This document shows positions 3,874 to 24,124 of a stretch of DNA of 32,000 nucleotides, piece by piece. The stretch comes from Pengzhenrongella phosphoraccumulans (GTDB lineage Bacteria > Actinomycetota > Actinomycetes > Actinomycetales > Cellulomonadaceae), in NCBI RefSeq assembly GCF_045689905.1, contig NZ_CP144210.1, forward strand, positions 357,240-389,239, read 5' to 3'. The position numbers were made by a program, and so were the translations under genes. Every line of letters begins with the position of its first letter. Positions within the stretch are counted from its first letter, which is position 1. Under the pieces are notes generated by a model that was not told where the DNA came from, did no database searches, and was given only the letters and a program-made list of their open reading frames with translations.

Positions 3874-4586
3874 CCCGGACCGATGCGGTAGCCGACGCCA
3901 CGGACGGTGCGGATGTAGCGCGGCGCCGCGACGTCGTCGTCCAGTTTGTGTCGCACGTGCCCGATGTGGATGTCGACGAGCCGCTCGTCGCCGACCCAGC
4001 CCGGGCCCCAGACGCGCTCGATGAGCTGGGTGCGGGTGAACGCGGTGCGGGGTCTCGACGACAGGGCGTCGAGCAGGTCGAACTCCGTGCGGGTCAGGTC
4101 GACCAGCTGCCCGTCGAGCCGCACCTCGCGCGCCTCGGGGTCGATCGAGACCGCGCCCACCCGGCGCACGGTCGTCGCCCCCGCGGGTTCGACCCCCGTG
4201 CGCGGCCGGCGCAGCAGGCTGCGGATCCGCGCGACGAGCACGCGCGACGAGAACGGCTTGGTCAGGTAGTCGTCCGCGCCCACCGACAGCCCGATGAGGG
4301 TGTCGATCTCGTCCACCCGGGCCGTGAGCATGATCACGTAGGCGTCGCTGAACGTGCGCAGCTGCCGACACACCTCGATCCCGTCGATCCCGGGCATCAT
4401 CACATCGAGGACGACGACGTCCGGTGCACTCGCGCGCGCCGAGGCGAGGGCCGAGGCGCCGTCGGCCGCGGCCACCACCTCGAAGCCCTCGCGTTCGAGA
4501 TAGGCCGCGACGACCCGGACCAGCGCCGGCTCGTCGTCGACGACGAGGGCGCGGATGCGTTGCTCGGTACTCAGGGGTTCTCCCAC
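3870..4586 (-). CDS. OmpR-family response regulator
   Basis: Receiver motifs (RALVVDDEP, VVLDVMMPGIDG, DDYLTKPF) plus a winged-helix C-terminus (TRTEFDLL, VRGVGYRI). Start taken as GTG 4586, which is uncertain. Confidence 0.88.
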   Translation of the reverse strand: MGEPLSTEQRIRALVVDDEPALVRVVAAYLEREGFEVVAAADGASALASARASAPDVVVLDVMMPGIDGIEVCRQLRTFSDAYVIMLTARVDEIDTLIGLSVGADDYLTKPFSSRVLVARIRSLLRRPRTGVEPAGATTVRRVGAVSIDPEAREVRLDGQLVDLTRTEFDLLDALSSRPRTAFTRTQLIERVWGPGWVGDERLVDIHIGHVRHKLDDDVAAPRYIRTVRGVGYRIGPG

Positions 4587-5487: not shown

Positions 5488-5835
5488 ATGCCGGAACCGA
5501 TCGACAGGCTGAAGGCCGAGTTCTTCAAGACGCTCGGGCACCCTGCCCGGATCCGCATCCTCGAGCTGCTCTCGACCGGCGAACGGTCGGTCGGCGAGCT
5601 GATGCCCGAGCTCGGTCTCGAGGCCTCCCACCTGTCCCAGCAGCTCGCGGTGCTGCGCCGGGCCGGCGTCGTCGTGGCCCGCAAGCAGGGCAACACCGTG
5701 ATCTATTCGATGGCCTCCGCGGACATCGCCGCACTGCTGCAGCTCGCCAGGAAGGTGCTGACGGGTCTGCTCGCCGAGCAGATGGACCACCTGTCCGACA
5801 TCCAGGCGACCGGGCAACCGGCCGCCAGCAGCTGA
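5488..5835 (+). CDS. ArsR/SmtB-family transcriptional regulator (Cys-free)
   Basis: RBS GAAGGA before ATG 5488. Typical wHTH (LGHPARIRILELL...RSVGEL...LSQQLAVLRRAGVV). The protein contains no cysteine. Positioned like Rv0081 in front of the hyc-like operon. Confidence 0.9.
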   Translation: MPEPIDRLKAEFFKTLGHPARIRILELLSTGERSVGELMPELGLEASHLSQQLAVLRRAGVVVARKQGNTVIYSMASADIAALLQLARKVLTGLLAEQMDHLSDIQATGQPAASS

Positions 5836-5968: not shown

Positions 5969-6448
5969 ATGACCTGGATCGGCAAGATCCGCCGAGTCGG
6001 GCGCGTCGTCGAACCCGCGAACGACGCCCCCGCGGACACGATCACGCCGCCGACCGGGGTGACCGGGTCGCTCCAGCTGCGGCACGTCGACGCCGGGTCG
6101 TGCAACGGGTGCGAGCTCGAGATCACGGGCGCCTTCTCCCCCGTGTACGACGCCGAGCGGTTCGGGGCACGGCTGATCGCCTCCCCGCGCCACGCCGACG
6201 GCATCCTCGCGACCGGGGTCGTGACCCACAACATGCTCCAGCCGTTGCTCAACACCCTGGATTCCGTGCCCGAGCCGCGCGTCGTGATCGCCGTCGGGGA
6301 CTGCGCGTGCAACGGCGGGGTGTTCCGCAAGGGCTACGGCGTCGTCGGCTCCGTCGCGGACGTGGTGGACGTCGACGTGCAGGTTCCGGGTTGCCCGCCC
6401 ACGCCCGACCAGATCGTCGCCGCCCTACGGACGGTGACCGGCCGGTGA
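5969..6448 (+). CDS. NuoB/HycG-like Fe-S small subunit of a group-4-hydrogenase-related complex
   Basis: ATG 5969 follows GAAAGAGG. The [4Fe-4S] Cys pattern is retained: GSCNGCE, GDCACNGG, GCPP. The 159-aa size matches the Rv0082-type protein as I recall it. Confidence 0.88.
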   Translation: MTWIGKIRRVGRVVEPANDAPADTITPPTGVTGSLQLRHVDAGSCNGCELEITGAFSPVYDAERFGARLIASPRHADGILATGVVTHNMLQPLLNTLDSVPEPRVVIAVGDCACNGGVFRKGYGVVGSVADVVDVDVQVPGCPPTPDQIVAALRTVTGR

Positions 6449-8448
6449 GCACCACCCTGCACCTGCCCGCGCCCGTCGAGGAGCTCGGCGAAGGGCCCCG
6501 CACGGCCCGCCGCGCCCGCGAGGCCCTGCTGTCGGGTGCCGTGACGACATTCCTTGGCGCCGCCGGCCTGGTCCTCGGCCTGACTGTGATCTTCGGACCC
6601 ACCCGGCACCTGCGCATCGCGTGGCTCCTCCCGCTCGTCGGGGTCCGGTTCGACCTCGACCCGCTCAGCGGGATCTTCGTCGCCGCGACCGGCGCCGTGG
6701 CGATCGCCGTCGGGATCTACGCCATCGGCTACGCCCAACGCGAGCACTGGGCGCGGTTCCCGATGGTGGTGCTGCCGCTGTTCGTGGGCGGCATGCTGCT
6801 CGTCCCGGCAGCGGGATCGGTCACGACGTTCCTGCTCGCCTGGGAGCTGATGGCCGCAGCGTCGCTCGTCCTGGTGCTCACCGAGCACCAGCGCGGGGCC
6901 GTCCGGTTCGCCGGGGTCTTCTACGCGGTCATGACCCAGCTCGGCTTCGCGATGATCCTGCTCGCGCTCGTGCTCCTGTCGGCGGCTGCCGGGGGTGACG
7001 CGTTCACGATGATCGCGGCCCACGCGGCGGGCATGTCGCCGGGCACCCGCACCGCGGTCTTCCTGCTGACGGTCCTGGGGTTCGGCTCGAAGGCCGGGCT
7101 CCTTCCGCTGCACGCCTGGCTGCCGAAGGCGCACCCCGAGGCCCCGAGCCCGGTCTCGGCGCTGATGAGTGCCGCGATGGTCAACATGGGCATCTACGGC
7201 ATCATCCGCATCGACCTGCAGATCCTCGGGCCGGGCCCGCACTGGTGGGGCCTGACGCTGATGATCCTCGGCGCCGTCTCGGCGGTCTTCGGCGTGCTCC
7301 AAGCCTCGGTGGCCACCGACCTGAAGCGGCTCCTGGCCTACTCGACCACCGAGAACATGGGTCTCGTGACGCTCGCGCTCGGCGCCGCAGCGCTGCTGAG
7401 CGCGTCCGGTGCGCCGGGGGTGGCCACGATCGCCATGACAGCGGCGCTCCTGCACGTGCTCGCGCACGCCGCGTTCAAGACGTTGGCCTTCCTCGCTGCC
7501 GGCTCGGTCCTGGCCCAGACGGGCCTGCGTGACCTCGACAAGCTCGGCGGGCTCGCCCGCCGCATGCCGGTGACCACGGTGATGTTCGGGATCGGCGCGC
7601 TCGGCGCGTCCGGGCTCCCGCTCGGCGCCGGGTTCGTCAGCGAGTGGCTGCTGCTCCAGAGCCTGATCCACTCCCCGCACGACGGCAACACGCTGCTCGC
7701 GCTGGCCATGCCGTTGTCGGTGGGCGCTGTCGCGCTCACCACCGGGCTCGGCATCGCTGCGATGGTCAAGGCGTTCGGGGTCGGCTTCCTGGCCCGACCC
7801 CGGTCGGTCGCCGCCGAGGACGCGCACGAGGCGTCGTCGAGCATGCTCCTCGGGATGGGCGTCGCGGCCACGGCCTGCGCGGTCTTCGCCTTCTCGCCCG
7901 CCCTGCTCGGCCCCGCCCTGGGCCAGGTCCTCGCCGAGCTGCCGAGCATCACCGGCGAGGCGGCCGGCCCGCGGCTGGGCACGTTCCTGCGCCTGCCGGG
8001 CGTCACCGGTTCGATGTCCCCGGCCCTGCTCGCGATCGCCCTCGTGGTCGGCGTGCTTGTCGCACTGGCGCTGTCGCGCTGGGGCGCTCGGCACCGGCCG
8101 GCGCCGCGCGTCGCCCCGCTGTGGGCCTGCGGCGGCGACTCGCTCAGCCCCCGCATGCAGTACACCGCGACCTCGTTCGCCGAACCGCTGCAGCGCGTGT
8201 TCGACAACGTGCTGTCGCCCGATACCGACGTGGAGGTCACTCATTTCGCCGAGTCCCAGTACCTGGTCGAGAAGGTCACGTTCCACACCCGGCTCGCCGA
8301 TCCGGTGGAGCAACGGCTCTACACCCCGGTGGTGCACGCCGTGACGGCGCTGGCCCAGACGATCCGGCGCGCCCACAACGGCAGCGTCCACCTCTACCTC
8401 ACGTACGGCGCCCTCGGGCTGCTCGTCGTGCTGCTGGCCGCGCAGTGA
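6445..8448 (+). CDS. NuoL/HyfB/HycC-like proton-conducting antiporter-type membrane subunit
   Basis: GTG 6445 overlaps the upstream stop (GTGA). Polytopic, with WLPKAHPEAPSPVSALMSA, TENMG and LAYST motifs typical of Mrp/NuoL-type subunits. Confidence 0.85.
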   Translation: MSTTLHLPAPVEELGEGPRTARRAREALLSGAVTTFLGAAGLVLGLTVIFGPTRHLRIAWLLPLVGVRFDLDPLSGIFVAATGAVAIAVGIYAIGYAQREHWARFPMVVLPLFVGGMLLVPAAGSVTTFLLAWELMAAASLVLVLTEHQRGAVRFAGVFYAVMTQLGFAMILLALVLLSAAAGGDAFTMIAAHAAGMSPGTRTAVFLLTVLGFGSKAGLLPLHAWLPKAHPEAPSPVSALMSAAMVNMGIYGIIRIDLQILGPGPHWWGLTLMILGAVSAVFGVLQASVATDLKRLLAYSTTENMGLVTLALGAAALLSASGAPGVATIAMTAALLHVLAHAAFKTLAFLAAGSVLAQTGLRDLDKLGGLARRMPVTTVMFGIGALGASGLPLGAGFVSEWLLLQSLIHSPHDGNTLLALAMPLSVGAVALTTGLGIAAMVKAFGVGFLARPRSVAAEDAHEASSSMLLGMGVAATACAVFAFSPALLGPALGQVLAELPSITGEAAGPRLGTFLRLPGVTGSMSPALLAIALVVGVLVALALSRWGARHRPAPRVAPLWACGGDSLSPRMQYTATSFAEPLQRVFDNVLSPDTDVEVTHFAESQYLVEKVTFHTRLADPVEQRLYTPVVHAVTALAQTIRRAHNGSVHLYLTYGALGLLVVLLAAQ

Positions 8449-9407
8449 GCGCCCTGTCGATCGTCGCGGCGGCCCTGCAGGTCGTCGTCGTCCTCGTCGG
8501 CGCGCCCTTCGTGGTCGGCGGGATGCGCCAGGTGCGCGCGCGCCTCGAAGGCCGCGCCGGGGGCGGCGTCGGGCAGCCCTGGCGCGACCTGCGCAAGCAG
8601 CTCCGCAAGCAGCAGATCACCCCGCGCGGCACGACGATCGTGTTCGCGATCGCACCGGCGGTCGCGGCCGGCACGACACTGCTCATCGCGGCGATCCTGC
8701 CGATCTTCGCGCTCGGCTCGCCGCTGGACTCGGTCGCGGACCTGTTCGGCGTCGTCGGCCTGCTCTTCCTCGGGACGGTCGCCCTCACGCTCGCCGGCCT
8801 CGACACGGGCACCGCGTTCGGCGGGATGGGGTCGAGCCGCGAGATCACGATCGCCGCGCTCGTCGAGCCGACGATCCTGCTCGCCGTGTTCGCCCTGTCG
8901 ATCCCGGGCCAGTCGGCCAACCTGTCGGCCATCGTCTCGGCCACCCTGGACGATCCCGGTCAGGTGCTCTCGCTCGGCAGCGTGCTCGCCTTCGTCGCGC
9001 TGGTCATCGTCATCATCGCCGAGACCGGCCGGCTGCCCGTCGACAACCCGTCGACGCACCTCGAGCTGACGATGATCCACGAGGCGATGGTCCTGGAGTA
9101 CTCGGGCCCGAAGCTCGCGCTCATCGAATGGGCGAGCGGCATGCGCCTGACCGTGCTGCTCGCCCTGCTCGCGAACCTGTTCCTGCCCTGGGGCATCGCG
9201 GGCGCCGACCCCTCGCTGCTGGCGGTGCTGCTCGGCGCCGTCGCGATCGCCGTCAAGGTCGCGGTGCTGGCCGGACTGCTCGCGGCGGGCGAGGTCTTCA
9301 TCGCCAAGCTGCGGTACTTCCGGGTGCCCGAGCTGCTCGCGGGTTCGTTCCTGCTCGCGCTGCTCGCGGTGACCGCGTCCTACTTCCTCGCCACCCCGAC
9401 CCAATGA
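8445..9407 (+). CDS. HycD/HyfC/NuoH-like membrane subunit
   Basis: GTG 8445 overlaps the upstream stop (GTGA). A 320-aa polytopic protein with [26 protein letters not shown], a NuoH/HycD-like loop. Confidence 0.85.
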
Positions 9408-9423
9408 CCGGACGGATTCGCTG

Positions 9424-10086
9424 ATGTCCCTCGCGACCTATACCGGCGTGCTCGACCTCACCGCGGGAGCTTTCCTGCTCACCGCGGTGCTCATCGTGTG
9501 GCGCCGCGAGCTCCGCTCCATCGTGCACCTGCTGGCCTGGCAGGGCGCGGCCCTCGCCGCGATCCCGCTCACCGAGGGGCTCTACCAGCGCGACCCCGGC
9601 CCGGTGATCGTCGGGCTCGTCGTGCTCGCGCTGCGCGCCGGGGTGCTGCCGGTCCTGCTCCTGCGTGCGGTGGGCACCGCCGACAACGAACGTCGCGAGA
9701 GCACGCCGCTGGTCAACACGACGTCCTCCCTGCTGATCACGGCCGCGCTCACCGTCCTGGCGTACGCGGTCACCCGGCCGATCATCGCGCTCGACCCGAC
9801 ACCGGCCACCCGCGCGGTCCCGGCCGCGTTCGCCGTGATCCTCATCGCGCTCTTCGTGATGGTCAGCCGGCGGCGCGCGCTCTCGCAGGCGGTCGGGTTC
9901 CTCATGCTCGACAACGGCATCACGGCCACGGCCTTCCTCATCACCGGCGGCGTCCCGCTGATCGTCGAGCTCGGCGCGTCCCTCGACGTGCTGTTCGCGG
10001 TCTTCGTGCTGGGACTGCTCACCGGCCACATGCGTCGCGCCTTCGGTGGCACCGACCTCGACCAGCTACGGGAGTTGCGCGACTGA
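9424..10086 (+). CDS. HyfE/HycP-like small membrane subunit
   Basis: 220-aa multi-TM ORF in the position and size of HyfE / Rv0085-type proteins. Confidence 0.7.
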
Positions 10087-11555
10087 TGGGCCTTGTCCTG
10101 CTCGTACCGATCCTTGCCCCGCTCGTCGCCGCCGGCCTCGCCGCAGCGCTCGGGTGGCGCCGACTGACCGCCTACGTGACCCTCGCCGCCGCCCTGAGCG
10201 TGCTGGTCACGGGCATCCTGCTCGCCACCCGGGTCGAGTCCGGGGCGCGCTTCGCCGTCGACCACCTGCTGCGGGCCGACTCGCTCAGCGTCACCATGCT
10301 GCTGGTCATGGGGACGGTGGGCACGCTCGCGACCTGGGCCAGCGTCGGCTACATCGACGCCGAGCTGCGCGACGGGCACACCGACCGCCGCGGCGCGCAC
10401 CTGTACGGCGTGCTGCTTCCGCTCTTCCTCGCCGCGATGGCCCTGGCCGTGCTGGCGAACAACATCGGCGTCATGTGGGTGGCCATCGAGGCCACCACCG
10501 TGGCGACGGCGTTCCTCGTCGGCCACCGCCGCACCCGGTCCGCGCTCGAGGCGACCTGGAAGTACGTCGTGATCTGCTCGGTCGGGATCGCGCTGGCGTT
10601 CCTCGGCACCGTGCTGCTCTACTTCGCGAGCCTGCACGCCGGCGCCTCGAGCGCGCACGCGCTGGACATCGACACACTACTCAACAACGCGGCCCAGCTC
10701 GACCCGGACGTCACCCGCCTCGCGGCAGGGCTCCTGCTGCTCGGGTACGGCGCCAAGGCGGGGCTCGTGCCCTTCCACACCTGGCTCGCCGACGCCCACA
10801 GCCAGGCTCCCGCGCCGGTCTCCGCGCTGATGAGCGGGGTGCTGCTCTCGGTCGCGTTCGCGTGCCTGCTACGCGTGAAGTCGGTCGTCGACCTCACGCT
10901 CGGCACCGGGTTCCTGCGGACCGGGCTGCTCATCGTCGGGCTGCTGACGCTGCTGATCGCCGCGTCGTTGCTCGTGGTCCAGACGGACTTCAAGCGCATG
11001 CTCGCCTACTCCTCGATGGAGAACATGGGCCTCGTCGCGATCGCCGCGGCTGCGGGCACCGAGCTCGCGATCGCCGCGCTGCTGCTGCACGTGCTGGCGC
11101 ACGGTATCGGCAAGTCGCTCGTGTTCCTCGCCTCCGGTCAGCTGCAGGCCGCCCACGAGTCGACCGCGATCAGCGCGGTCACCGCCGTCCTCTCGCGCTC
11201 ACGTCTCGTCGGCGTGTCGTTCGCCGTCGGACTCGCGGTCCTGATCGGGCTGCCCCCGTTCGCGATGTTCGCGAGCGAGCTGTCCATCTCGCGCGCCCTC
11301 GCGGGGGCCAACCTCGCCTGGGTGCTCGGCGCGACGCTGCTCCTCATGACCGTCGCGTTCACCGCCCTGGTCCGCAACGGCAGCCGCATGCTGCTCGGCA
11401 CGCCGCAGCCGAACGCCCCGGTGATCGCCCTGCCGGGCACGATCGCCGCAGCGCTCGTCACGGGGATGATCCTCAGCCTGGCCCTCGGGCTGAGCGCGGG
11501 CCCCCTCACCCAGCTCTTCCAGTCCGCTGCCACCCAGCTCGGAGCAAGCTCATGA
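10086..11555 (+). CDS. HyfF/HycQ/NuoN-like antiporter-type membrane subunit
   Basis: ATG 10086 overlaps the upstream stop by 1 nt (TGATG). A 489-aa polytopic protein with WLADAHSQAPAPVSALMSG and LAYSSMENMG motifs. Confidence 0.85.
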   Translation: MGLVLLVPILAPLVAAGLAAALGWRRLTAYVTLAAALSVLVTGILLATRVESGARFAVDHLLRADSLSVTMLLVMGTVGTLATWASVGYIDAELRDGHTDRRGAHLYGVLLPLFLAAMALAVLANNIGVMWVAIEATTVATAFLVGHRRTRSALEATWKYVVICSVGIALAFLGTVLLYFASLHAGASSAHALDIDTLLNNAAQLDPDVTRLAAGLLLLGYGAKAGLVPFHTWLADAHSQAPAPVSALMSGVLLSVAFACLLRVKSVVDLTLGTGFLRTGLLIVGLLTLLIAASLLVVQTDFKRMLAYSSMENMGLVAIAAAAGTELAIAALLLHVLAHGIGKSLVFLASGQLQAAHESTAISAVTAVLSRSRLVGVSFAVGLAVLIGLPPFAMFASELSISRALAGANLAWVLGATLLLMTVAFTALVRNGSRMLLGTPQPNAPVIALPGTIAAALVTGMILSLALGLSAGPLTQLFQSAATQLGASS

Positions 11556-13093
11556 CCGTCCCCTTCGCCCCGACCGGCGTTCCCGTCGGCGTCCACCGCA
11601 CCAGCCGGACGCTGCTGCCGGAGGAGATCGCCGACCAGTCCGCCTGGCTGCTCGCGGCCGGATTCCGCCTCGGCCTCGTCGCCGCGCACGACGACGGCGC
11701 GACGCTGCGGGTCGTCTACCTGTTCCTCGCCGGCAGCCCCGACCGCCGCGTCGAGCTGCAGGTCCGGCTGCCCGCCGACGACCCGCGGATCGGCTCGCTC
11801 GCCCCGCTGTCGTTCGCGGCCTCCCGGTTCGAGCGCGAGATGCACGACCTCTACGGCATCGTGCCGGTGAACCACCCGCTCCCCCGCCGCATGGTGCGCC
11901 ACGCGCACTGGCCGGCGGGCTGGTACCCGATGCGCCACGACGCCGGCGACCCGCCGCCGTTCCACGAGACCGGCGCCGACGCCTACCCGTTCATCGCGGT
12001 CGAGGGTGACGGCGTCTACGAGATCCCCGTCGGCCCGGTGCACGCCGGTGTCATCGAGCCGGGCCACTTCCGCTTCTCCGTCGTCGGGGAGTCCGTGCTC
12101 AAGCTCAAGGCCCGACTGTGGTTCACCCACCGCGGCGTCGAGAAGCTCTTCGAGGGGCTCGAGGCCACCGAGGCGATCCACCTGGCCGAGCGCATCAGCG
12201 GGGACACGTCCGCCGCGCACGCGCTCGCCCACACGCTCGCCGTCGAGGATGCGCTCGGCATCACGATGACCGAGCCGGCGCAGCGGCTGCGCGCGCTCTT
12301 GGTCGAGCTCGAGCGCCTCTACAACCACGCCGCCGACCTGGGGGCGCTGGCCAACGACGTCGGCTTCTCGCTCGCCAACGCGCACGCCCAACGGATCCGG
12401 GAGCAGCTCCTGCGGATCAACCTCGCGGTCACGGGCCACCGGCTGCTGCGCGGCGCGATCCGCCCCGGCGCGGTCGAGCTCCTCAGTTTGCCGGACCCCG
12501 CCGAGCTCGACCGGATCGCCGCGGACCTCGCGGAGGTCGTCGAGCTCTCGCTCGAGAACTCGGTGATCCGCGAGCGGTTCACCGGCACGGCCAGGCTCAC
12601 CCGCACGCAGGCGCACGACCTCGGCTGCCTCGGCTACGTCGCCCGCGCGAGCGGGGTGGCCACCGATGCGCGGATCGATCACCCGACGGTCCCGCTCGCG
12701 GTGACCCCCGCGACCGGGGCCGACGGCGACGTGCTCGCGCGCTACCTGATCCGACGCGACGAGTTCGCCACGTCGATCCGGATCGTCAAGGCGCTCATCC
12801 GGTCGGCCGGACCGCTCCGTTTCCTGGCTGCGCCGGACGGGACCGGAACGACCGACCCGACCGAGGAGACCGCTGCGGTCCGCAGCGGCGTCGGCATCGT
12901 CGAGGGCTGGCGCGGGACGATCGTGCACCGCGTCGAGGTGGCCCCCGACGGGCGCCTGACGCGCGCGAAGATCGTCGACCCGTCGTGGTTCAACTGGCCG
13001 GCCCTGCCGCTGGCGATGGCCGACACGATCGTGCCGGACTTCCCCGTCACCAACAAGAGCTTCAACCTGTCCTACGCCGGCAACGACCTGTAG
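11552..13093 (+). CDS. HycE-like fused NuoC-NuoD 'large subunit' lacking all Ni-Fe cysteine ligands (Ehr-type)
   Basis: ATG 11552 overlaps the upstream stop (ATGA). The NuoC-like N-terminal domain (FEREMHDLYGI) is followed by a NuoD/HycE-like domain (GPVHAGVIEPGHFRF, RLWFTHRGVEKL). The RxCGxCxxxH position reads RISGDTSAAH (12191-12220). The C-terminal DPCxxCxxR position reads NLSYAGNDL (13064-13090). Confidence 0.9.
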   Translation: MTVPFAPTGVPVGVHRTSRTLLPEEIADQSAWLLAAGFRLGLVAAHDDGATLRVVYLFLAGSPDRRVELQVRLPADDPRIGSLAPLSFAASRFEREMHDLYGIVPVNHPLPRRMVRHAHWPAGWYPMRHDAGDPPPFHETGADAYPFIAVEGDGVYEIPVGPVHAGVIEPGHFRFSVVGESVLKLKARLWFTHRGVEKLFEGLEATEAIHLAERISGDTSAAHALAHTLAVEDALGITMTEPAQRLRALLVELERLYNHAADLGALANDVGFSLANAHAQRIREQLLRINLAVTGHRLLRGAIRPGAVELLSLPDPAELDRIAADLAEVVELSLENSVIRERFTGTARLTRTQAHDLGCLGYVARASGVATDARIDHPTVPLAVTPATGADGDVLARYLIRRDEFATSIRIVKALIRSAGPLRFLAAPDGTGTTDPTEETAAVRSGVGIVEGWRGTIVHRVEVAPDGRLTRAKIVDPSWFNWPALPLAMADTIVPDFPVTNKSFNLSYAGNDL

Positions 13094-13123: not shown

Positions 13124-13459
13124 TCAGCCGTGCCGGCGCCGGCCGCTCGCGACGCCACCACCGGCGCCGCCCGAGAAGATCATGCTCACGCCGAGCATGA
13201 AGCCGAAGTTGTACCAGTTGCCGTTGTTGTGGATCTCGTAGATGCCCACGTCCGGGTTGAACAGCGACACGATGAACGTGATCGGGCTGATCAGGCCCTG
13301 CCACAGGCCGAGCCAGAAGCCCGCGACGTCGGGGTCGCCGACCCCGGCCGCCTCGTTCGGCCCCGCCGCGCACGCGGCGAGCCCGAGCACGCCGACCACC
13401 ACCATCACTGCGACGAGCAGCACCGTCCGCACCCGCCGGGTCCGCCTCAGTTGCGCCAT
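13124..13459 (-). CDS. small putative lipoprotein / membrane protein
   Basis: 111-aa ORF with a basic N-terminus, hydrophobic core and lipobox-like LGLAAC, followed by two hydrophobic segments. No family recognised. Confidence 0.5.
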   Translation of the reverse strand: MAQLRRTRRVRTVLLVAVMVVVGVLGLAACAAGPNEAAGVGDPDVAGFWLGLWQGLISPITFIVSLFNPDVGIYEIHNNGNWYNFGFMLGVSMIFSGGAGGGVASGRRRHG

Positions 13460-13470: not shown

Positions 13471-13561
13471 GTCAGCCGAGCACGTAGTCAGCAGGACGCA
13501 GCGTCAGCAGGATGCAGCGTCAGCAGGACGCGTCAGCAGGACGCAGCGTCAGCCGAGCACG
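13471..13561. repeat. minisatellite: four ~16-bp units (gtcagcaggaYgcagc) bracketed by a 14-bp direct repeat (gtcagccgagcacg)
   Basis: Flanking copies are at 13471-13484 and 13548-13561. The second contains the stop codon and last codons of the 13549..14355 gene. Internal units are 13487-13502, 13503-13518, 13519-13531 (truncated) and 13532-13547. Confidence 0.9.
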
Positions 13562-14355
13562 ACCGCGGGCGACGGCACGGCGAGCGAGTTGATCGCCGCG
13601 AGCTGCCGGCCCGACCGGTAACGCAGCGCGGCCAGCCGCTGCGGGCTCAACCGCTCGCACACCCAGTCCCAGTGCAGCGAGCACCAGTCGCCCGGGAGCA
13701 ACGGACCGGCCAGCCCGAGCCCGTCCACCGCCGTGACCACCTGCTCGACGACGACCGGCCCCTCCCGCAGCGCGCGGCCGTCCCACTGCAGGGGGCGGCT
13801 GCGCACGAGGGCGCGGTCGTCGACGACCTCGATCACGCGGCCCCACCGGATCCGGCACCGGTCGAGCACCCGGAGCGGCTCGTCGACCCGGCCGCCACGC
13901 AGCAGCCCGAGCCAGGGGTAGACACCGAACACGTGGAAGCTGTGATGGGGCTGCGCGCCCGGCACGGCCGCGGCGAGCAGCGACCACGACCGCCCGGCGC
14001 GCGCGCGGAACCGGTCCTCGATCGACCCGCCCATCATCGACAACGGCACCCGGTCGAGCAGCACGTTGCCCACCCAGTACGCCTCGACCACGCGCGCGTC
14101 GAGGGGATCGGCGATGCCGTTCGCCGCGGCGATCAGCTCGAGGTACGGCCACGCGCCCGTGAACCCGCGCGCGAGGTGACGCAGATCGCCGTCGTCCACC
14201 CCACTGCTGGCCTGCTCGAGCAGCTGACCGGCGGCGTCCGGGCCGCAGAAGCCCAGCTCGTTGGGCGGGTAGGCGTACCGGGCGAACAGCAGAGGCCCGC
14301 TCGTCCGCGCGCCGGCGGCCGCCCGGCCCATGCCGCCGACGCCGTCAGCCACCAT
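13549..14355 (-). CDS. conserved hypothetical protein, last gene of the hydrogenase operon (possibly DUF6390-like)
   Basis: 268-aa ORF with high GC3. The motif FARYAYPPNELGFCGP resembles a family I recall next to actinobacterial hydrogenase maturation genes, but the family name is uncertain. Confidence 0.55.
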   Translation of the reverse strand: MVADGVGGMGRAAAGARTSGPLLFARYAYPPNELGFCGPDAAGQLLEQASSGVDDGDLRHLARGFTGAWPYLELIAAANGIADPLDARVVEAYWVGNVLLDRVPLSMMGGSIEDRFRARAGRSWSLLAAAVPGAQPHHSFHVFGVYPWLGLLRGGRVDEPLRVLDRCRIRWGRVIEVVDDRALVRSRPLQWDGRALREGPVVVEQVVTAVDGLGLAGPLLPGDWCSLHWDWVCERLSPQRLAALRYRSGRQLAAINSLAVPSPAVVLG

Positions 14356-15304: not shown

Positions 15305-15600
15305 GCCGATCCCTCCCAGGGGGTGCGGTGTGCAGCGGTGGCTGCCGAGCGCCCAGCGCGCACGGGCGCTGGCAGAACGGGGGGTTGGGACGCGCCGGCG
15401 CGCAGCGCGAGGGCCTCGGCGGCCTCCTGCGCGCCGAGCCGCTCGAGCGCGAAGCCGGAGTGGACCACGACCCAGTCGCCCACGGCGACGGCGTCATCCA
15501 GGGTCACCAGCGACACGGCGACCGTGCGGTCCGCGGTCGCGACGATCCCGGTGGCCCCGGGGCGGACCTCGACGAGTCGGCCGATCTCACCGAGACACAT
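15301..15600 (-). CDS. hypC: HypC/HybG/HupF-family [NiFe]-hydrogenase assembly chaperone
   Basis: Begins MCLGEIGRLVEV, with the invariant N-terminal Met-Cys. The core reads VSLVTLDDAVAVGDWVVVHSGFA. It has a roughly 35-aa Ala/Pro-rich C-terminal tail. The ORF-track start at 15720 is rejected. Confidence 0.85.
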   Translation of the reverse strand: MCLGEIGRLVEVRPGATGIVATADRTVAVSLVTLDDAVAVGDWVVVHSGFALERLGAQEAAEALALRAGASQPPVLPAPVRAGRSAATAAHRTPWEGSA

Positions 15601-16087
15601 CGGCGACCACCCCCTGCGCGGCAACGTGGCACGCACCCAGGACCGCGGCGACCGCACCGTCCAGCGCCGACCGAACCCCGGGCGACAGCGCCGCACCGTG
15701 CTCGACCGTGGCGGCCTCAACCCCGACGAGCACGAGGCGGCGCGGGAGCGAGTGCAGCGCGCGACCCAGCTCGACGGCGGCGGCGAGCCCGAAGGCGTGC
15801 GTGCCGCCCCGGCCGGTACTGGCCCAGGCGTCCGCGGTGAGCGGCGCGGCTTCGGTCCCGGCCTCGAGCACGAGCAGCGTCCCGGGCGGAGCGCCCGATG
15901 TCACGGCGTCGACCACGACGGCGAGCTCCGACCCGCGCCACAGGTCGATCAGGCCGGTCGGGTCCTCGTGCTCGACGACGACGACGTCCGGCGGCGCGAG
16001 CTCGGCGACCCGGCGCGCGACCCAGAGCCCGACGGCGTCGTCGCCGCCGTCGGGGCTGCCGAGCCCGATCACGAGGGTGGCCGTCAC
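15587..16087 (-). CDS. hydrogenase maturation endopeptidase (HycI/HybD/FrhD family)
   Basis: GTG 16087 overlaps the large-subunit stop (GTGA). Motifs LVIGLGSPDGGDDAVG, VVDAV and GTHAFGL are typical of the family. Confidence 0.8.
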   Translation of the reverse strand: MTATLVIGLGSPDGGDDAVGLWVARRVAELAPPDVVVVEHEDPTGLIDLWRGSELAVVVDAVTSGAPPGTLLVLEAGTEAAPLTADAWASTGRGGTHAFGLAAAVELGRALHSLPRRLVLVGVEAATVEHGAALSPGVRSALDGAVAAVLGACHVAAQGVVADVSR

Positions 16088-17390
16088 GACCGCTCCACCG
16101 TGAGGTCGAGGAAGTGCGTCGCGCACGAGATGCACGGGTCGTAGTTGCGGATGGCCGCCTCGCACCGGTGGGATAGGTCGTGGTCGGACAGCTCGACCCA
16201 GCGCTCGGCAAGAGTGCGCATGTCCGCCTCGATGCTCGGCTGGTTCTGCGAGGTCGGCGGCACGATCTGCGCGTCCAGGATCGTGCCGGCCGCGTCCAGG
16301 CGGTACCGGTGGAAGAGCACCCCGCGGGGGCCTCGGTCGCACCGAAGCCCTCCCCGGCGCGCGCGGGCACGGGGACCGAGGGCGGCACGCCGTCGCGCCA
16401 GGCGTCGATGATCGCCAGCGCCTCGTGGAAGATCTCGACCAGCTCGACCGCGCGCACGATGATCGACCGGAACGGGTTGCGGCACGTCTCGCCGAGCCCC
16501 GCCTCCCGGGCCGCCTGCTGGGCGAGCGGCGACAAGCGGTCGAAGTTCAGCGTGTAGCGGGCCAGGGGGCCGACGACGTAGGGGCCGCCGCCGTCGAGCC
16601 GCGCGTGCAGCGAGTTCGAGTGCGCGACGTGGAACTCGGTGATGTGCTCGGTGAACTCGCGCACGTCGAACGCGGTCCCGGCGGTCGTCACGACGTTGCC
16701 CGACTCGATCGGGTACCCGCTCTCGGGGCGCAGCGAGAGGTAGGTGTACGGCTGCTCGAAGTCGGGGAAGTCGAACGTCGACACCAGACGCACCGTCTCG
16801 AGCGCATCCTCGAGCGCTCGCTCGAGGGCCGGCCGAAGTCCCATGAGCTCGGCCACCGTGGGCATCCGGTAGAAGCCGCCGAGCTTGACGTTGATCGGGT
16901 GCACCGAGCGGCCCCCGACCAGGGTCATCAGCTGGTTGCCGACCTTCTTCAGCCGCAGGCCACGTTCGACGGCGTCCGGGAAGTCCTTCGCCATCTCGAT
17001 CGCGCCGGGGTACCCGAGGAAGTCGGGGGTGTGCAGCAGGTAGATGTGCAGCGCGTGGCTCTCGATCCACTCGCCGCAGTACAGCAGCCGCCGCATGGTC
17101 CGGATCGTGTCGGGCACGCTGACACCGCACGCGTCCTCGAGCGCGAAGCACGCGCTGAACTGGTAGGCGACCGGGCAGATCCCGCAGATGCGGGCGGTGA
17201 TGTCCGGCGGCTCGGTCCACGCCCGACCCCGCAGGAACGCCTCGTAGAAGCGGGGCGGCTCGAAGATCCGCAGCTCGACCGCGCCGACGTGACCGTCCTT
17301 GATCTCGAGGTGCATGCCCCCCTCGCCCTCGACGCGCGACAGCGTGCCGACGTGCAGCACCTGACCGCCGTCGGTCAGCTTGTGGCTCAT
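16084..17390 (-). pseudogene. hyhL: [NiFe]-hydrogenase group 3b large (alpha) subunit, interrupted by a 1-nt frameshift as assembled
   Basis: The N-terminal frame (17390 down to ~16330) has RVEGEGG and RICGICPVAY and ends at ..GFGATEAP. The C-terminal 81 aa (RGVLFHRY...NYDPCISCATHFLDL, stop 16084) continue in the -1 frame. The junction is at the G5 run 16326-16330 (C5 on the coding strand). One extra C would give an intact 435-aa protein. This may be a sequencing error. Confidence 0.85.
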
Positions 17391-18196
17391 GTCATCGCCC
17401 CCTCGTCGCGCGCGGGCTCATGTCGTTCGCTCTCGCGGCGGAACGGCTCGGACGCGGCATTGAACGTCCGATAGATGCGCATGACCTCGTCGTCGGCCAT
17501 GCCGAGCGCGATCAGGCGGTCCGAGAGCGCGACGGTGTTCGGGGAGTCCTGCGGCCCGAAGCAGCCGTAGCAGCCGCGCGCGAACGCCGGGCAGAGCGCG
17601 CCGCAGCCCGCCTGCGTGACCGGTCCGAGGCACGGCGTGCCGTTCGCGACCGCGACGCACACCGCACCGCGCCGCTTGCACTCGACGCACACGCTGTAGG
17701 TCGGGATGCGCGGCACGCGACGCTGGATGTAGGCCGCGAGGACCTCGAGCAGCTGGTTCTTGTTGATGGGGCACCCGCGCAGCTCGAAGTCCACGCTGAC
17801 GTGCGCCGAGATCGGCGTCGACCGCGCCAGGGTCGACAGGTACTCCGGGTGCGCGTACACGATCGACCGGAACTCCGCGATGTCCCCGAAGTTGCGCAGC
17901 GCCTGGATCCCGCCGCTCGTCGCGCACGCGCCGATGGTCACGACGTGCTTCGACATCTCGCGGACCTGGCCGATGCGTTCGATCTCCTCGGGGGTCGTGA
18001 CCGATCCCTCGACGAGGGACACGTCGTAGGGCCCGTCCACGACGGCGCGCGTCGCCTCCGGGAAGTAGGCGATCTCCACCTCCCCCGCGAGGGCCATGAG
18101 CTCGTCCTCGCAGTTGAGCAGGGTCAGCTGGCAGCCGTCGCACGAGGCGAACTTCCACACGGCCAGCTTGGGCAGGGTCGACGACTGGGTGGTCAT
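17387..18196 (-). CDS. hyhS: [NiFe]-hydrogenase group 3b small (delta) subunit
   Basis: [16 protein letters not shown] and GCP motifs plus a Cys-rich C-terminal half ([31 protein letters not shown]). Its stop overlaps the hyhL ATG (ATGA). Confidence 0.88.
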
Positions 18197-18197
18197 G

Positions 18198-19070
18198 TCA
18201 CAGCTCCCGACTCGACAGCAGCGGCGCGAGGCGGTCGTAGGTGAGCACCGGCCCGTCGACGCAGACGAACAGCTCCCGGAGCTGGCAGTGCCCGCACAAC
18301 CCGACGCCGCACTTCATGTTGCGCTCCATGGACATTCGGATCCGATGCTCCCGAACGCCCCGGTCCACGAGGGCTGCGGCGGAGAACCGCATCATCACCT
18401 CGGGCCCACACACGAACGCGGTCGTGTGGCGCGGGTCGAAACCCGCCCGCGGGATCAGCTGGGTGACGAGCCCGACCTTGCCGCGCCAGGCGTGCTGGCC
18501 GTTGTCGACCGTGACCTCGACGACGATGCCGTGGTCGTGGGCCCAGGTGCGCAGCTCGTCGCCGAACAGGATGTCCTCCGGGGTGCGCACGCCGTAGAGC
18601 AGCAGGACCCGGTCGTACCGGTCGCGGTGGGCGATCAGCTCGCAGATCGCCGGCCGCAGCGGCGCGAGGCCGATCCCGCCGACGACGAACACGACGTCGC
18701 CGCCCGCGGCCGAGGCCATGTCCCACGAGGTCCCGTACGGTCCGCGGACCCCGAGCAGCGAGCCGACCGGGGCGGCGATGAGCGCGTGCGTGACGACGCC
18801 GACGTCGCGGATCGTGTGCTCGAGCGGCCCACCGAGGGCCGGGTCACCGCTGATCGAGATCGGCACCTCGCCGACCCCGAAGGCGTCGAGCATCGTGAAC
18901 TGACCCGCCGCGTACTGCATCGGGGGCGCGTCCACGGGGTCGAGCTTGAGCGTGAAGGTGTCCCGCGTGTCCTGCCGGGTGTGCCCGATGCGGTACCGCC
19001 GCGGGCGCATCGGGTCGATGGCCGCCGCGGCGGCCGCCCCGGTTCGGTGGTGACTGTCGAGCATGCTCAT
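18198..19070 (-). CDS. hyhG: group 3b hydrogenase gamma subunit (FAD/NAD(P)-binding, [2Fe-2S])
   Basis: Ferredoxin-NADP-reductase-like fold ([16 protein letters not shown]) with a C-terminal [10 protein letters not shown]...C cluster motif. Confidence 0.85.
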
Positions 19071-19100
19071 CGCGAAGCTCCCGCCCGTCCGACGTTCCCT

Positions 19101-20252
19101 CTAGCTGCGGCCCGCAGCCGGTTGCGGGGTCCAGCGCAGCGCTGCGGCCTCCGCGGTGATGTCGATCGCGGCCGGGCACCAGGTGATGCACCGGCCACAA
19201 CCCACGCAGCCCGACATGCCGAACTGGTCCTGCCAGGCCCCGAGCTTGTGCGTGATCCACTGCCGGTAGCGCGACCGGATCTCGGGTCGGATGCTGCCGC
19301 CGTGGATGTAGGAGAAGTCCTCCGAGAAGCACGAGTCCCACACGCGATGACGCTCGGCCACCTCGCCGGTGAGATCGGCCACGTCCTCGACCGAGGTGCA
19401 GAAGCAGGTCGGGCACACCAACGTGCAGTTGGTGCACGCGAGGCAGCGCGACGCGACGTCGTCCCAGCGCGGGCTGTCGACGCTGGCGTACAGCAGGTCC
19501 TTGATCCCGTCGGTGTCGAGCGTTCGCCCCATGTGCGCGACGGACCAGGCGACGACGTCGTCGGCCGCCTGGACGTCCTCGTCGGGCGCCTCAGCCGTCG
19601 GGACCTCTGCGAGGACCTCCGCGCCTCGCTCGGTGCCGACATCGACGAGGAACCGGTGTGGGCCGTCGTCGAGCAGCTCTGTCAGCGCAAGGTCGTAGCC
19701 GGCGTCCGGCCGCGGACCGGTCCCCATCGAGGCGCAGAAGCAGGTGCCGCCAGGATCGGTGCAGGTCACCGCCACGACGAACGCCCCGGACCGCCTCGCC
19801 GCGTAGCGGACGTCCGTGTGGTCGCGACCGAGCAGCACGACGTCGTGGATGGCCAGGGCGTGCAGGTCGCACGAGCGGACACCGAAGAGCGCGTACGGCC
19901 TGCCGTCGCCGGCAGCCGGGTCGCCCGGTTCGACCTCGTTGACCGTGAACTCCTCGCCCGTGCGCCGACCGCGCCAGATGAGCTCCTCGGCCGGGAACAG
20001 CACCGGCTTGGGTGACTGCGCGCCCGCGGCGTACCCGAAGAGCGCGTCATCGTTGCGGCGCCGGAGCCGGTAGTGCGCGGCATCCTGCTCGTCACCCCAT
20101 CCGCGAGGCAGGTCGTCGATCGTGGCGATGGGTGCGTGCACGATGGCGCCGTCCCGAACGGTCGGTCCCATCACGCCGTAGCCGCGAGCACTGAGGGCAT
20201 CGATCAAGCCCTGGAGCCCGGCAAGATCCAGCAACCGCTCCTCGTGCACCAT
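19101..20252 (-). CDS. hyhB: group 3b hydrogenase beta subunit (4Fe-4S dicluster protein)
   Basis: ATG at 20252 (MVHEERLLD). [16 protein letters not shown] and [12 protein letters not shown] ferredoxin motifs. The 952-aa ORF-track version is an artefactual extension antisense to the HNH gene. Confidence 0.85.
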
Positions 20253-20520: not shown

Positions 20521-22188
20521 GTGTTCGATCTTCTGACTCGGTTCTGGCGACTCGATGGCGAGGGGGCGGCTGTGGACGTGACCGGTGCGCCTCTCGCCAG
20601 CATGGTGGCCGCCACCCACGGTCCTGGGGTGGCCGACGGCGGTTCGGTCGCGCGACTCGCGTGCGGGGTGGGCGGCGAGGTGGCCGCGTTGCGCGCGGCC
20701 GCTGCGGCGTTGGCCGCCGCTGCCGCGGGGGCGCCCCAGTGGGCCGGGCCCGAGCGGCAGAGCATCCTCACCGAGCTGAACCTGACCATCGACACCCTGC
20801 AGGCGATCCGGTCGAGCGTGCTCATCGCCGAACGCGACGCCGAGACGTGGCGCGGGTCCGGGGACCCGACCTTCGAAGCGTGGGTCGGACGCAAGACCCG
20901 CCTCGGCAAGCGCGGCGGGGCCGCGCGGGTGCGCCAGGCCGCCGAGCTCGACACCGTCCCCGACGTGCGCGAGGCCGTGACCGAGGGGCGTATCCCGCTG
21001 GAGCACGCCGGGATCATCGCCAAGGTCGCCGCCACCGGCACCCCCGCCCAACGCGAAGCCGCCACCTCTCCCGCCGGGCAGGAGACGTTGTTGGGGTTGG
21101 CTGCCGGGCAGGACGCGGGCACGTTCGCGCGCACCGCGGACCGGTGGGCCGCCCACGTGGACCCCGCCGGCCTGGAACGCGACCACCAGGCCCAACGCCG
21201 CGCGAGGTTCCTGCACCTGACCCACACCCCGCACGGCACCCACCTCAAAGGGCTGCTCGACTCGATCACGGGCCACCAGGTCGCCCTCGCCCTGGAAGCG
21301 GCCACCCCGCGACCGGCCGCCGACGACGACCGCGACTTCGGCCAACGCAACGCCGACGCCCTGGCCACCATCGCCGACCGCATCCTGGCGTCGGTGGACA
21401 CCAAACCCGGCGCGCACGTACCACCCCAGGTCTCCGTCATCCTCACCGAAGCGACCTGGGCCGCCGCCCAAGCCGACCGCGACCGCCGCCGCACCGCCCT
21501 AGCCACCTTCGGCTTCACCACCGACGACGACGGCGAGGTTTCCGGGCGCAGCGACACGACGAACGACTCGCGGTGCGGGGCGGGACCTGCGGTGCTCCCC
21601 GTCCTGGGGTACGCGCCGGCGACCCTCGAGGACGGCACACCCGTGCCCGCCAGTGAGCTCGGCGTGATCATGTGCGACTGCGAACTGACCCGCATCGTCA
21701 TCAACGCCGACGGAGTCCCCCTAGACCTCGGGCGCACCGAACGACTGTTCACCGGACCCCAACGCAAAGCCGTCATCGCCCGCGACCGCGAATGCGCCTG
21801 GCCCGACTGCCACGCCCACGCCCGCTGGTGCCACATCCACCACCTCGCCTGGTGGCAACGCGACGGCGGAGCCACCTCCGTGGAAAACGGTGCGTTGCTG
21901 TGCAACTTCCACCACCACGAAGTCCACCGACTCGACCTCACCCTGACCCGCCACACCACACGCGACTACAACGCCATCACCGGCATCGCCCGCGTCTGGT
22001 ACCAATTCACCGACCCCACCGGACGACAACTCCGACAGACCGAACCACCCGGGATCCAACCACCCGCACCACCACGACCACCCGAACCACCGAACGAGCT
22101 CGACCTCACTCAGGTCGATGCGCCGATCGACGCGCGCGAGATCTACCCCGACGACCTCTTCCAGACGTCAGACGCTCGCGTTGCCTGA
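20521..22188 (+). CDS. DUF222 / HNH endonuclease-domain protein (REP13E12-like)
   Basis: 555 aa with a GTG start. The C-terminal HNH region reads RDRECAWPDCHAHARWCHIHHLAWWQRDGGATSVENGALLCNFHHHEVH. The long N-terminal DUF222-type region is typical of actinobacterial 13E12-repeat proteins. Confidence 0.85.
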   Translation: MFDLLTRFWRLDGEGAAVDVTGAPLASMVAATHGPGVADGGSVARLACGVGGEVAALRAAAAALAAAAAGAPQWAGPERQSILTELNLTIDTLQAIRSSVLIAERDAETWRGSGDPTFEAWVGRKTRLGKRGGAARVRQAAELDTVPDVREAVTEGRIPLEHAGIIAKVAATGTPAQREAATSPAGQETLLGLAAGQDAGTFARTADRWAAHVDPAGLERDHQAQRRARFLHLTHTPHGTHLKGLLDSITGHQVALALEAATPRPAADDDRDFGQRNADALATIADRILASVDTKPGAHVPPQVSVILTEATWAAAQADRDRRRTALATFGFTTDDDGEVSGRSDTTNDSRCGAGPAVLPVLGYAPATLEDGTPVPASELGVIMCDCELTRIVINADGVPLDLGRTERLFTGPQRKAVIARDRECAWPDCHAHARWCHIHHLAWWQRDGGATSVENGALLCNFHHHEVHRLDLTLTRHTTRDYNAITGIARVWYQFTDPTGRQLRQTEPPGIQPPAPPRPPEPPNELDLTQVDAPIDAREIYPDDLFQTSDARVA

Positions 22189-24122: not shown

Positions 24123-24124
24123 AT

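Follow-up and report, generated by a model that had tools for sequence, protein, structure and literature searches.

The 32,000-nucleotide stretch of DNA analysed here (the window) stems from a Micrococcales-like host whose closest named relative is Pengzhenrongella frigida (87%). It holds a seven-gene cassette in the order ArsR, NuoB-like, HyfB-like, HycD-like, HyfE-like, HyfF-like and HycE-like (Table 1); the NuoB-like and HycE-like products are termed EhrS and EhrL in the following. The GTG start of the HyfB-like gene overlaps the EhrS stop by 4 nt, and the EhrL ATG overlaps the stop codon of the gene directly upstream. For the regulator, the best PDB match was M. tuberculosis Rv0081 (6jmi, E 3.4e-36) over the full length, and most related loci likewise have an ArsR regulator ahead of the other cassette genes.

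Among the membrane subunits, the HyfB-like protein scored 565 bits against the NCBIfam model for hydrogenase 4 subunit B, which is under the cutoff of 667. The HycD-like subunit matched HycD best among PDB entries (3.9e-36) and keeps the acidic 'ETGRLPVD...E...E..EYSG' stretch. In the HyfF-like subunit, the channel residues E135, K224 and H335/H339/K343 are intact and identical in MbsH and MbhH, with E135 and K224 being identical in M. smegmatis NuoN as well.

Table 1. Features of the cassette, with positions counted from the first letter of the window.
Feature	Position	Strand	Remarks
ArsR/SmtB-family regulator	5488..5835	+	Pfam HTH_5; zero Cys
Small subunit EhrS, NuoB/HycG-like, 159 aa	5969..6448	+	One predicted hydrogenase-type [4Fe-4S] site
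Cys45 and Cys48 codons (CNGC)	6101..6112	+	Hydrogenase-type CxxC, not complex I tandem CC; HycG/MbhJ alignment
Cys112 codon, third cluster ligand	6302..6304	+	HycG/MbhJ alignment
Cys142 codon (GCPP), fourth cluster ligand	6392..6394	+	HycG/MbhJ alignment
HyfB/NuoL-like antiporter-like membrane subunit, 667 aa	6445..8448	+	Pfam Proton_antipo_M 7e-53
HycD/NuoH-like membrane subunit	8445..9407	+	Pfam NADHdh 1e-39; link between peripheral and membrane arm
HyfE-like small membrane subunit	9424..10086	+	NCBIfam hydrogenase 4 membrane subunit 2e-19, below cutoff; conserved in cassette
HyfF/NuoN-like antiporter-like subunit	10086..11555	+	Pfam Proton_antipo_M 8e-46
Large subunit EhrL, 513 aa	11552..13093	+	NuoC-like N-terminal domain fused to NuoD/HycE-like domain; Ni-Fe ligands absent
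Glu169, beta1-beta2 loop	12056..12058	+	Equivalent to HycE Glu193 and complex I His38/His95; alignment and PMC9474812
Former L1 motif, R-I-S216-G-D218-T219-S-A-A-H223	12191..12220	+	Cys to Ser, Cys to Thr, new invariant Asp
Asp269, Nqo4 Asp139 equivalent	12356..12358	+	89% Asp among cysteine-less relatives; mostly Gly in the Cys-bearing sisters
Former L2 motif, N505-L-S507-Y-A-G510-N-D512-L513, then stop	13064..13090	+	Cys to Ser, Cys to Gly, canopy Asp to Asn

Cofactor ligands in the small and large subunits

EhrS belongs to the Oxidored_q6 family (Pfam, 3e-28), with HycG (4e-34) and MbhJ (2e-32) as best PDB matches. When aligned to these two proteins, C45, C48, C112 and C142 occupy the ligand positions of the proximal cluster, forming the CxxC...C...C pattern of group 4 [NiFe] hydrogenases, and all four are invariant in 56 orthologues. 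An earlier note on this DNA, which had the small subunit retaining its [4Fe-4S] cysteines, was thus correct on this point. A CxxC pair is the hydrogenase version of the site, as opposed to the tandem CC of complex I cluster N2 (PMC8165549, PMC9474812).

EhrL matched the Pfam families Complex1_30kDa, NiFeSe_Hases (N-terminal part only) and Complex1_49kDa, and among solved structures HycE (3e-57, best), MbhL (3e-26) and Nqo4 (1e-23). The flanking strings described before as conserved (GPVHAGVIEPGHFRF, WFTHRGVEKL and IVEGWRG) are all present. Neither the L1 motif RxCGxCxxxH nor the L2 motif [DE][PL]CxxCxx[HR] of group 4 [NiFe] hydrogenases occurs in the protein: positions 12191-12220 translate to RISGDTSAAH and 13064-13093 to NLSYAGNDL plus stop. 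In the HMMER alignment with E. coli HycE (7z0s_E), 'drvCgiCgfaH' pairs with 'erisgdtsaaH' and 'sldpCys' with 'sfnlSya'. This alignment ends one residue before the fourth ligand, and Gly510 was placed by gapless extension over the last four residues. Ser216, Thr219, Ser507 and Gly510 therefore stand at the Ni-Fe ligand positions, that is, all four cysteines are replaced, as the earlier note had claimed from the translation. With its four ligands replaced, EhrL cannot bind a canonical Ni-Fe centre, and the claim that the complex is not a hydrogenase stands. The C-terminus of EhrL coincides exactly with the end point of mature hydrogenases.

Sequence constraint and genomic context

We compared 64 EhrL orthologues, which span Micrococcales to Mycobacterium. 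S216, G217, D218, H223, S507, Y508, G510, N511, D512 and L513 are invariant in this set, and Thr219 is kept in 61 of the 64. Among the 120 closest database relatives, the C-terminal NKSFNLSYAGNDL is present in all, and an SGD-type L1 string was found in 116, the search pattern giving no match in the other four. In 64 cysteine-less sequences, each standing for one cluster at 50% identity, the signature residues are 86-100% conserved, and the S-G-D...N-L-S-Y-x-G-x-D-L signature holds down to approximately 37% identity. EhrL evolves under purifying selection, with a median dN/dS of 0.225 (NG86, 1990 pairs), in line with the previous statement that the complex is maintained. A pseudogene reading is ruled out by this ratio of about 0.2. 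The motif pattern is not due to chance, and the replacement of the cysteines is not decay.

As a comparison set we used 80 related loci, among which M. tuberculosis itself is not represented. The cassette is syntenic at about 60 loci from two actinobacterial orders, dozens of these being in mycobacterial genomes and MAGs. Clustering of GC3-filtered ORFs from the 80 loci yielded no conserved gene beyond the seven-gene cassette and no linked electron donor or acceptor gene. A 2x[4Fe-4S] subunit of the NuoI/HycF/EchF type, searched for as CxxCxxCxxxCP, was absent from the cassette and from the 80 loci; the sole match to this ferredoxin motif was HyhB of a separate group 3b hydrogenase. No hyp maturation genes were linked to the cassette in the window or at the other loci. 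The group 3b hydrogenase next to the cassette was considered as a conserved partner and rejected, since the two are neighbours only in the window and in P. frigida.

Pocket residues compared with HycE and Nqo4

Around the lost metal site, most equivalents of the hydrogenase second sphere and proton path are kept. EhrL has the group 4 hallmarks, namely the beta1-beta2 Glu169 (HycE E193; 97% conserved among cysteine-less representatives), the canopy Arg454 (R478) and the proton path residues His259 (H284), Glu404 (E437) and Arg365 (R395). Asn258, which aligns with HycE S283, is listed among the kept second-sphere positions. The strict canopy Asp (HycE D529) is not kept, being Asn505 in EhrL and Asn in 86% of cysteine-less relatives. 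Ten pocket positions change together between cysteine-less and Cys-bearing relatives, among them Ser216, Asp218, Asp269, Asp476-Pro477, Asn505, Ser507, Gly510 and Leu513. By homology, the pocket residues would lie close together in three dimensions. An AlphaFold2 model of EhrL, built on an alignment of 30 sequences (73-92% identity), reached a mean pLDDT of 60.8, with values below 50 over residues 110-195, 344-393 and 478-513, the pocket included.

The earlier note had further suggested a quinone-like or other substrate pocket as in complex I, and here the comparison with T. thermophilus Nqo4 points the other way. The quinone ligand Tyr87 aligns with the invariant Gly217, and the redox-Bohr histidine His169 (a numbering that agrees with H38 and Y87) aligns with Leu. 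The His38 position is occupied by Ile168 in the sequence alignment and by the hydrogenase-type Glu169 when the structural equivalence of the beta1-beta2 loop is applied, in which HycE Glu193 corresponds to complex I His38/His95 (PMC9474812). With the tandem-Cys N2 motif missing too, Asp269, equivalent to Asp139, the partner of His38, is the only complex I-like residue in the pocket. As judged from these alignments, the predicted EhrL pocket is a hydrogenase pocket minus the metal, not a complex I quinone site.

Affiliation with the Ehr class

The operon encodes an actinobacterial Ehr (energy-converting hydrogenase-related) complex, a class that has already been described; the earlier note is right about the missing Ni-Fe site and overlooked this membership. 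By the published definition, Ehr complexes are related to group 4 hydrogenases, lack the CxxC motifs, are located near group 4f and have no function assigned. EhrL is homologous to group 4/NuoD large subunits, both of its CxxC motifs are missing, and NuoB-like, NuoH-like, HyfE-like and Mrp/antiporter-like subunits are co-encoded. The class (2013, BBA 1827:198) includes Geobacter sulfurreducens GSU0739-0745; the NuoL-like and HyfE-like membrane subunits reported for Geobacter have counterparts in the cassette, next to the NuoB-like small subunit. Nothing essential differs from other Ehr complexes; the actinobacterial subclade is set apart by the fused NuoC-NuoD large subunit and the ArsR regulator.

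Given the regulator match, the synteny and the mycobacterial orthologues, we read the locus as the probable orthologue of M. tuberculosis Rv0081-Rv0087, which likewise comprises one ArsR regulator and six genes in the same order. EhrL shares 66-71% identity with its orthologues from many Mycobacterium species, and all mycobacterial members of the 64-orthologue set carry S216, S507 and G510. Rv0081-Rv0087 ('hyc', or predicted formate hydrogenlyase) has been published as an EHR that is 'not a functional hydrogenase', M. tuberculosis is reported to be without Ni-Fe maturation genes, and the locus has been tied to the hypoxia response through Rv0081 and DosR. In contrast, neither control by DosR/MprA nor a neighbouring Rv0088 is evident at the window locus.

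Among the Cys-bearing proteins, the nearest are putative group 4f-like [NiFe] hydrogenases (ERxCGxC...SFELCYxCxDR; 37-42% identity), which form one cluster in a crude neighbour-joining tree; in the literature, Ehr is placed beside group 4f. They share the fused architecture, the C-terminal end and nearly all other conserved residues with EhrL. However, all four cysteines are in place in these hydrogenases, where Gly stands at the position of Asp269, Ser-Ala at that of Asp476-Pro477, Glu at that of Asn505 and Arg at that of Leu513. Of the solved structures, that of the E. coli Hyd-3 FHL complex (PDB 7Z0S) gave the best match for three subunits, namely the large, the small and the NuoH-like one; EhrL shares its proton path (R478/H284/E437/R395) as well as Glu193, whereas its Ni-Fe cysteines, canopy Asp529, HycF, HycB and FdhF have no counterpart in the cassette. 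Like EhrL, the complex I/NDH-1 Q-module (Nqo4/Nqo6) has lost the four Ni-Fe cysteines and has the Asp139 equivalent, and NuoH-like and antiporter-like subunits are common to both complexes. Unlike complex I, the window complex is without Tyr87, His38, His169, tandem-Cys N2 ligation, NuoI and the N-module. In P. furiosus MBS/Mbx (PDB 6U8Y) and the alpha-proteobacterial 'hyq', Ni-Fe binding was lost from a hydrogenase-derived complex as it was here, but MBS has two vestigial cysteines and a three-Cys proximal cluster, its proposed catalytic site, while EhrL has no ligand cysteine and EhrS a four-Cys cluster.

Discussion

We consider it the most probable reading (roughly 60%) that the cassette encodes a six-subunit Ehr complex under an Rv0081-type ArsR regulator which is neither a hydrogenase nor a canonical quinone reductase and which would perform redox- or charge-coupled ion translocation. 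The single cluster would exchange electrons with a partner encoded elsewhere, and its redox state would be coupled to the protonation of a rebuilt polar pocket (Glu169, Ser216, Asp218, Asp269, Asn505, Ser507, Asp512, Arg454). The resulting change in pocket charge might then reach the two antiporter-like subunits by way of the HycD-like one, so that electron transfer would drive ion translocation, or the reverse. Such coupling by charge movement is the favoured model for the whole superfamily (PMC9474812). Against this reading, the 80 loci show no NuoI/HycF-type ferredoxin subunit or other conserved neighbour that could carry electrons in and out; ferredoxin and menaquinone would be the obvious donor and acceptor candidates in an actinobacterium.

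A complex I-like menaquinone reductase, with the quinone bound in the former Ni-Fe pocket, reduced by the [4Fe-4S] cluster and driving proton pumping, is unlikely. Actinobacteria possess menaquinone, the NuoH-like subunit is present, the layout agrees with a Q-module plus P-module, and Asp269 is conserved in the cysteine-less clade and not in the hydrogenase sisters. However, Gly217 in place of Tyr87, Glu at the His38 position, Leu for His169 and the missing tandem-Cys N2 motif all argue against quinone binding, as do the hydrogenase-type canopy Arg in place of Lys and the gain of acidic, not hydrophobic, residues. Furthermore, Ehr complexes, albeit of a different subclade, occur in Riflemargulisbacteria genomes in which the full quinone biosynthesis pathway was not found.

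Could the correlated switch at about ten positions have turned the pocket into a polar site for a hard metal ion, a small polar substrate or proton loading? We regard this as doubtful. If true, the rebuilt pocket would represent chemistry new to the complex I superfamily, including the hypoxia-linked Ehr of M. tuberculosis.

We give still less weight to an Mrp-like cation/proton antiporter in which the single cluster senses O2, NO or redox state and gates ions while no substrate is turned over. The conserved hydrogenase proton path, most of the canopy residues and the coordinated rebuilding of the pocket are more in keeping with a site of chemistry or of proton handling than with a passive cap, and the superfamily offers no precedent for such a sensor. 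The single cluster, the lack of an input module and of a conserved redox partner, the intact antiporter-like subunits and the tie of the M. tuberculosis orthologue to hypoxia through Rv0081 and DosR would all fit it.

Novel catalysis at a pocket lined by Ser, Asp, Asn and Glu, with either a hard metal ion (Mg, Mn or Fe) or some small polar substrate bound in it, appears quite improbable. Asp218, Asp269, Asp476 and Asn505 were gained in correlation, together with Ser216 and Ser507, and position 218 matches the residue between the two N-terminal cysteines that faces the active site of standard hydrogenases (compare the gas-channel residue Val74 of D. fructosovorans). Serine is, however, a poor metal ligand, and the clustering of these residues in space is itself a prediction from homology.

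For practical purposes, the selection analysis refutes a decaying or non-functional formate hydrogenlyase relic: the catalytic ligands are gone and the partners FdhF, HycB and HycF are absent, but a dN/dS of about 0.2, invariant residues at the substituted positions and intact, translationally coupled reading frames with synteny across two actinobacterial orders speak against decay. A working hydrogenase with non-cysteine ligands can be dismissed with similar ease despite the retention of most second-sphere hydrogenase residues, as we know of no [NiFe] centre without Cys ligation, hyp genes are unlinked in the window and at the other loci, and M. tuberculosis, with its orthologous locus, is reported to be without Ni-Fe maturation genes.

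The window locus brings no new kind of system. Ehr complexes are widespread and hold an evolutionary position between membrane-bound hydrogenases and complex I; the one of M. tuberculosis answers to hypoxia-linked regulators. The comparative result narrows the options to a metal-free hydrogenase pocket with a conserved Ser/Asp/Asn signature, in a complex that has one cluster and is not linked to an electron-input module. These features give targets for mutagenesis and biochemistry of the mycobacterial complex.

Results

The NuoC+NuoD/HycE-like large subunit is encoded in a window of 66–74% G+C, and its start codon shares an ATGA with the stop of the gene before it. Translation returned RISGDTSAAH and NLSYAGNDL, the latter followed by the stop codon, at the former Ni-Fe motifs, exactly as read in the earlier note. 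In a HMMER alignment with E. coli HycE (7z0s_E, E 3e-57), 'drvCgiCgfaH' of HycE stands opposite 'erisgdtsaaH' and 'sldpCys' opposite 'sfnlSya'. The alignment reaches one residue short of the fourth ligand; extended ungapped to the C-terminus, it pairs the ligand cysteines with Ser216, Thr219, Ser507 and Gly510. The substitution of all four Ni-Fe ligands is confirmed and robust. The protein ends at the same position as mature hydrogenases. An AlphaFold2 model of it (pLDDT 60.8) was too poor for use.

The small subunit keeps its Fe-S cysteines, as had been claimed: CxxC, C and GCPP are each present opposite HycG and MbhJ, and all four cysteines are invariant among 56 orthologues. A fifth, Cys114 (DCAC), lies two residues past the ligand Cys112. 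Since only 9 of the 56 orthologues have a cysteine there (Leu, Ile or Val in the rest), Cys114 is unlikely to be a cluster ligand.

Coordinates of features in the window
Feature	Position	Strand	Remark
Rifampin ADP-ribosyltransferase (Arr-ms) homologue	2107–2667	-	Pfam E 1e-41
Histidine kinase	about 2719–3900		two-component system adjoining Arr-ms homologue
Response regulator	3870–4586		same system
ArsR-family regulator	5488–5835	+	head of six-gene operon
NuoB-like small subunit	5969–6448	+	aligns with HycG and MbhJ
Cys114 codon	6308–6310		in small subunit
NuoC+NuoD/HycE-like large subunit	11552–13093	+	ATG at 11552, stop 13091–13093, 513 aa
Unannotated 111-aa ORF	13124–13459	-	between the two operons; in P. 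frigida (L001) at 73%
DUF6390 protein	13549–14355	-	between the two operons; in L001 at 81%
Group 3b-like hydrogenase operon	15587–20252	-	complete; convergent to Ehr operon
HycI-type protease	about 15587–16087	-	group 3b-like operon
Large subunit, group 3b-type [NiFe]	16084–17390	-	split over two frames
Small subunit	17387–18196	-	group 3b-like operon
NAD-binding/Fe-S gamma subunit	18198–19070	-	group 3b-like operon
Fer4 beta subunit	19101–20252	-	group 3b-like operon
DUF222-domain protein	20521–22188	+	directly beside hydrogenase operon
Sulfur-trafficking/sulfide-detoxification-like cluster	23962–28764	+	
Same cluster	31319–31651	-	
Fur-family regulator	28813–29256		near sulfur cluster

Six translationally coupled genes follow the ArsR regulator, in the order NuoB-, HyfB/NuoL-, HycD/NuoH-, HyfE-, HyfF/NuoN- and NuoC+NuoD/HycE-like. 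The operon encodes no NuoI/HycF-type ferredoxin, HycB or formate dehydrogenase, and a CxxCxxCxxxCP scan matched solely the beta subunit of a group 3b hydrogenase, which is a separate enzyme encoded on the opposite strand. The HyfF-like subunit still has Glu in TM5 (E135), Lys in TM7 (K224) and the H335-x3-H339-x3-K343 motif, all opposite identical residues in MbsH and MbhH, and the HycD-like subunit retains the acidic 'ETGRLPVD...E...E...EYSG' stretch common to HycD. With these channel residues and the acidic stretch in place, the ion-translocation capacity of the membrane arm looks intact.

The closest named relative is Pengzhenrongella frigida (87%). Scanning one genome per species, we found 339 relatives. 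The best 80 of the 339 (66–87% identity) come from Micrococcales, Dermatophilaceae and Cellulomonas and from many Mycobacterium, Mycolicibacter and Gordonia. Among these 80, practically all loci of sufficient length show the seven genes in synteny, and no neighbour outside this cassette is conserved. In 64 full-length orthologues S216, G217, D218, H223, S507, Y508, G510, N511, D512 and L513 are invariant, and position 219 is Thr in 61. Nei-Gojobori dN/dS was 0.20 against the closest orthologue (median 0.225, n=1990 pairs); since third-position G+C exceeds 85%, dS may be underestimated and the real ratio lower. A decaying pseudo-complex is excluded by these ratios and by substituted positions that are invariant or nearly so. 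The earlier view of a complex that is not a hydrogenase, yet under selection, was right.

When 1.8 billion cluster representatives were searched exhaustively with HMMER, 856 matched at E<=1e-30. Among the top full-length representatives, E-R-x-S-G-D-x-x-x-x-H ... S-F-N-L-S-Y-[AS]-G-x-D-L is seen down to about 37% identity; 19 relatives with ERxCGxC...SFELCYxCxDR form one cluster in a rough NJ tree. Nearly all conserved residues are common to both groups; about ten positions switch jointly (Cys-bearing/cysteine-less: 216 Cys/Ser, 218 Val or Ala/Asp, 219 Cys/variable, 269 Gly/Asp, 476–477 Ser-Ala/Asp-Pro, 505 Glu/Asn, 507 Cys/Ser, 510 Cys/Gly, 513 Arg/Leu).

The complex-I-like quinone pocket suggested in the earlier note found no support. 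In HMMER alignments with T. thermophilus Nqo4 (residue numbers as we take them from its sequence, which reproduce H38 and Y87), Tyr87 stands opposite the invariant Gly217, the redox-Bohr His169 opposite Leu, and His38 opposite Ile168/Glu169 of the beta1-beta2 loop; Asp139 was the only tested residue with an equivalent (Asp269). The FHL structure paper places HycE Glu193 where complex I has its histidine (PMC9474812), and neither the tandem Cys nor the redox-Bohr His that go with cluster N2 occur in enzymes of the MBH type (PMC9474812; PMC8165549). The window complex has Glu169 at the histidine position and CNGC, not a tandem Cys, in the small subunit; it also lacks the two vestigial Cys and the three-Cys cluster typical of MBS. 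The FHL canopy and proton-path residues R478, H284, E437 and R395 are kept as R454, H259, E404 and R365; S283 (N258) aside, only the 'strictly conserved' D529 is changed (N505). With these residues kept and the Nqo4 quinone ligands unmatched, the alignments point to a hydrogenase pocket minus its metal, enriched in Asp and Asn, and not to a complex-I-like quinone site.

The group 3b-like operon adjoins the Ehr (energy-converting hydrogenase-related) operon only in the window and in P. frigida, being absent beside it in the other 79 loci. Its large subunit shifts frame at about 16329/16330, where, compared with P. frigida, one base is lost in 'GAGGC-CCCCGCGG' within the conserved EAPRG motif, leaving N-terminal RICGICP and C-terminal DPCISC in separate frames. 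The gene may be a true pseudogene, or the shift may come from a sequencing error in a homopolymer. The neighbouring DUF222 gene, possibly of mobile-element type, is overlain by long spurious antisense ORFs in high-GC sequence. The sulfur cluster includes a pyridine-nucleotide disulfide oxidoreductase, DsrC/TusE-like and DsrE-like proteins, a rhodanese and an oxidoreductase-rhodanese fusion; close to it are a CsoR-family metal-sensitive repressor and the Fur-family regulator.

Discussion

The locus fits the published Ehr definition; in the literature, Ehr complexes are placed phylogenetically close to group 4f and carry Mrp-antiporter-like subunits (PMC6349859, PMC4758237, PMC7304191, PMC10284858, PMC7894505). 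In M. tuberculosis, the annotated regulator Rv0081, oxidoreductases Rv0082 and Rv0083, and hycD, hycP, hycQ and hycE (PMC6901956) have the same make-up as the cassette, and Rv0081 (6jmi) is the top solved-structure match of the window regulator (E 3.4e-36, full length). On the gene list and this match, we file the locus as an Ehr complex and the putative orthologue of Rv0081–Rv0087. In several mycobacterial loci (L025, L028, L034, L038, L039, L045, L051, L057, L066, L070, L077) a second ArsR paralogue, 54–59% identical to the window regulator, lies directly downstream of the large-subunit gene; no upstream copy passed filters in L039, L066, L070 and L077.

Beyond the observed parts and their conservation, we infer a mechanism. 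Its most economical form would have the single hydrogenase-type cluster swap electrons with a partner whose gene lies outside the locus; protonation of the polar pocket and the HycD-like subunit would link the change in the cluster's redox state to the antiporter-like pair. Such charge-movement coupling has been argued for the whole superfamily (PMC9474812). A menaquinone reductase, a redox-sensing antiporter, or a new metal or substrate site would be less economical rivals. The phenomenon itself has been described before, under the name Ehr and, for mycobacteria, as the hyc/Rv0082-87 locus, and the only new handle on the function of the class that this locus provides is its conserved signature.
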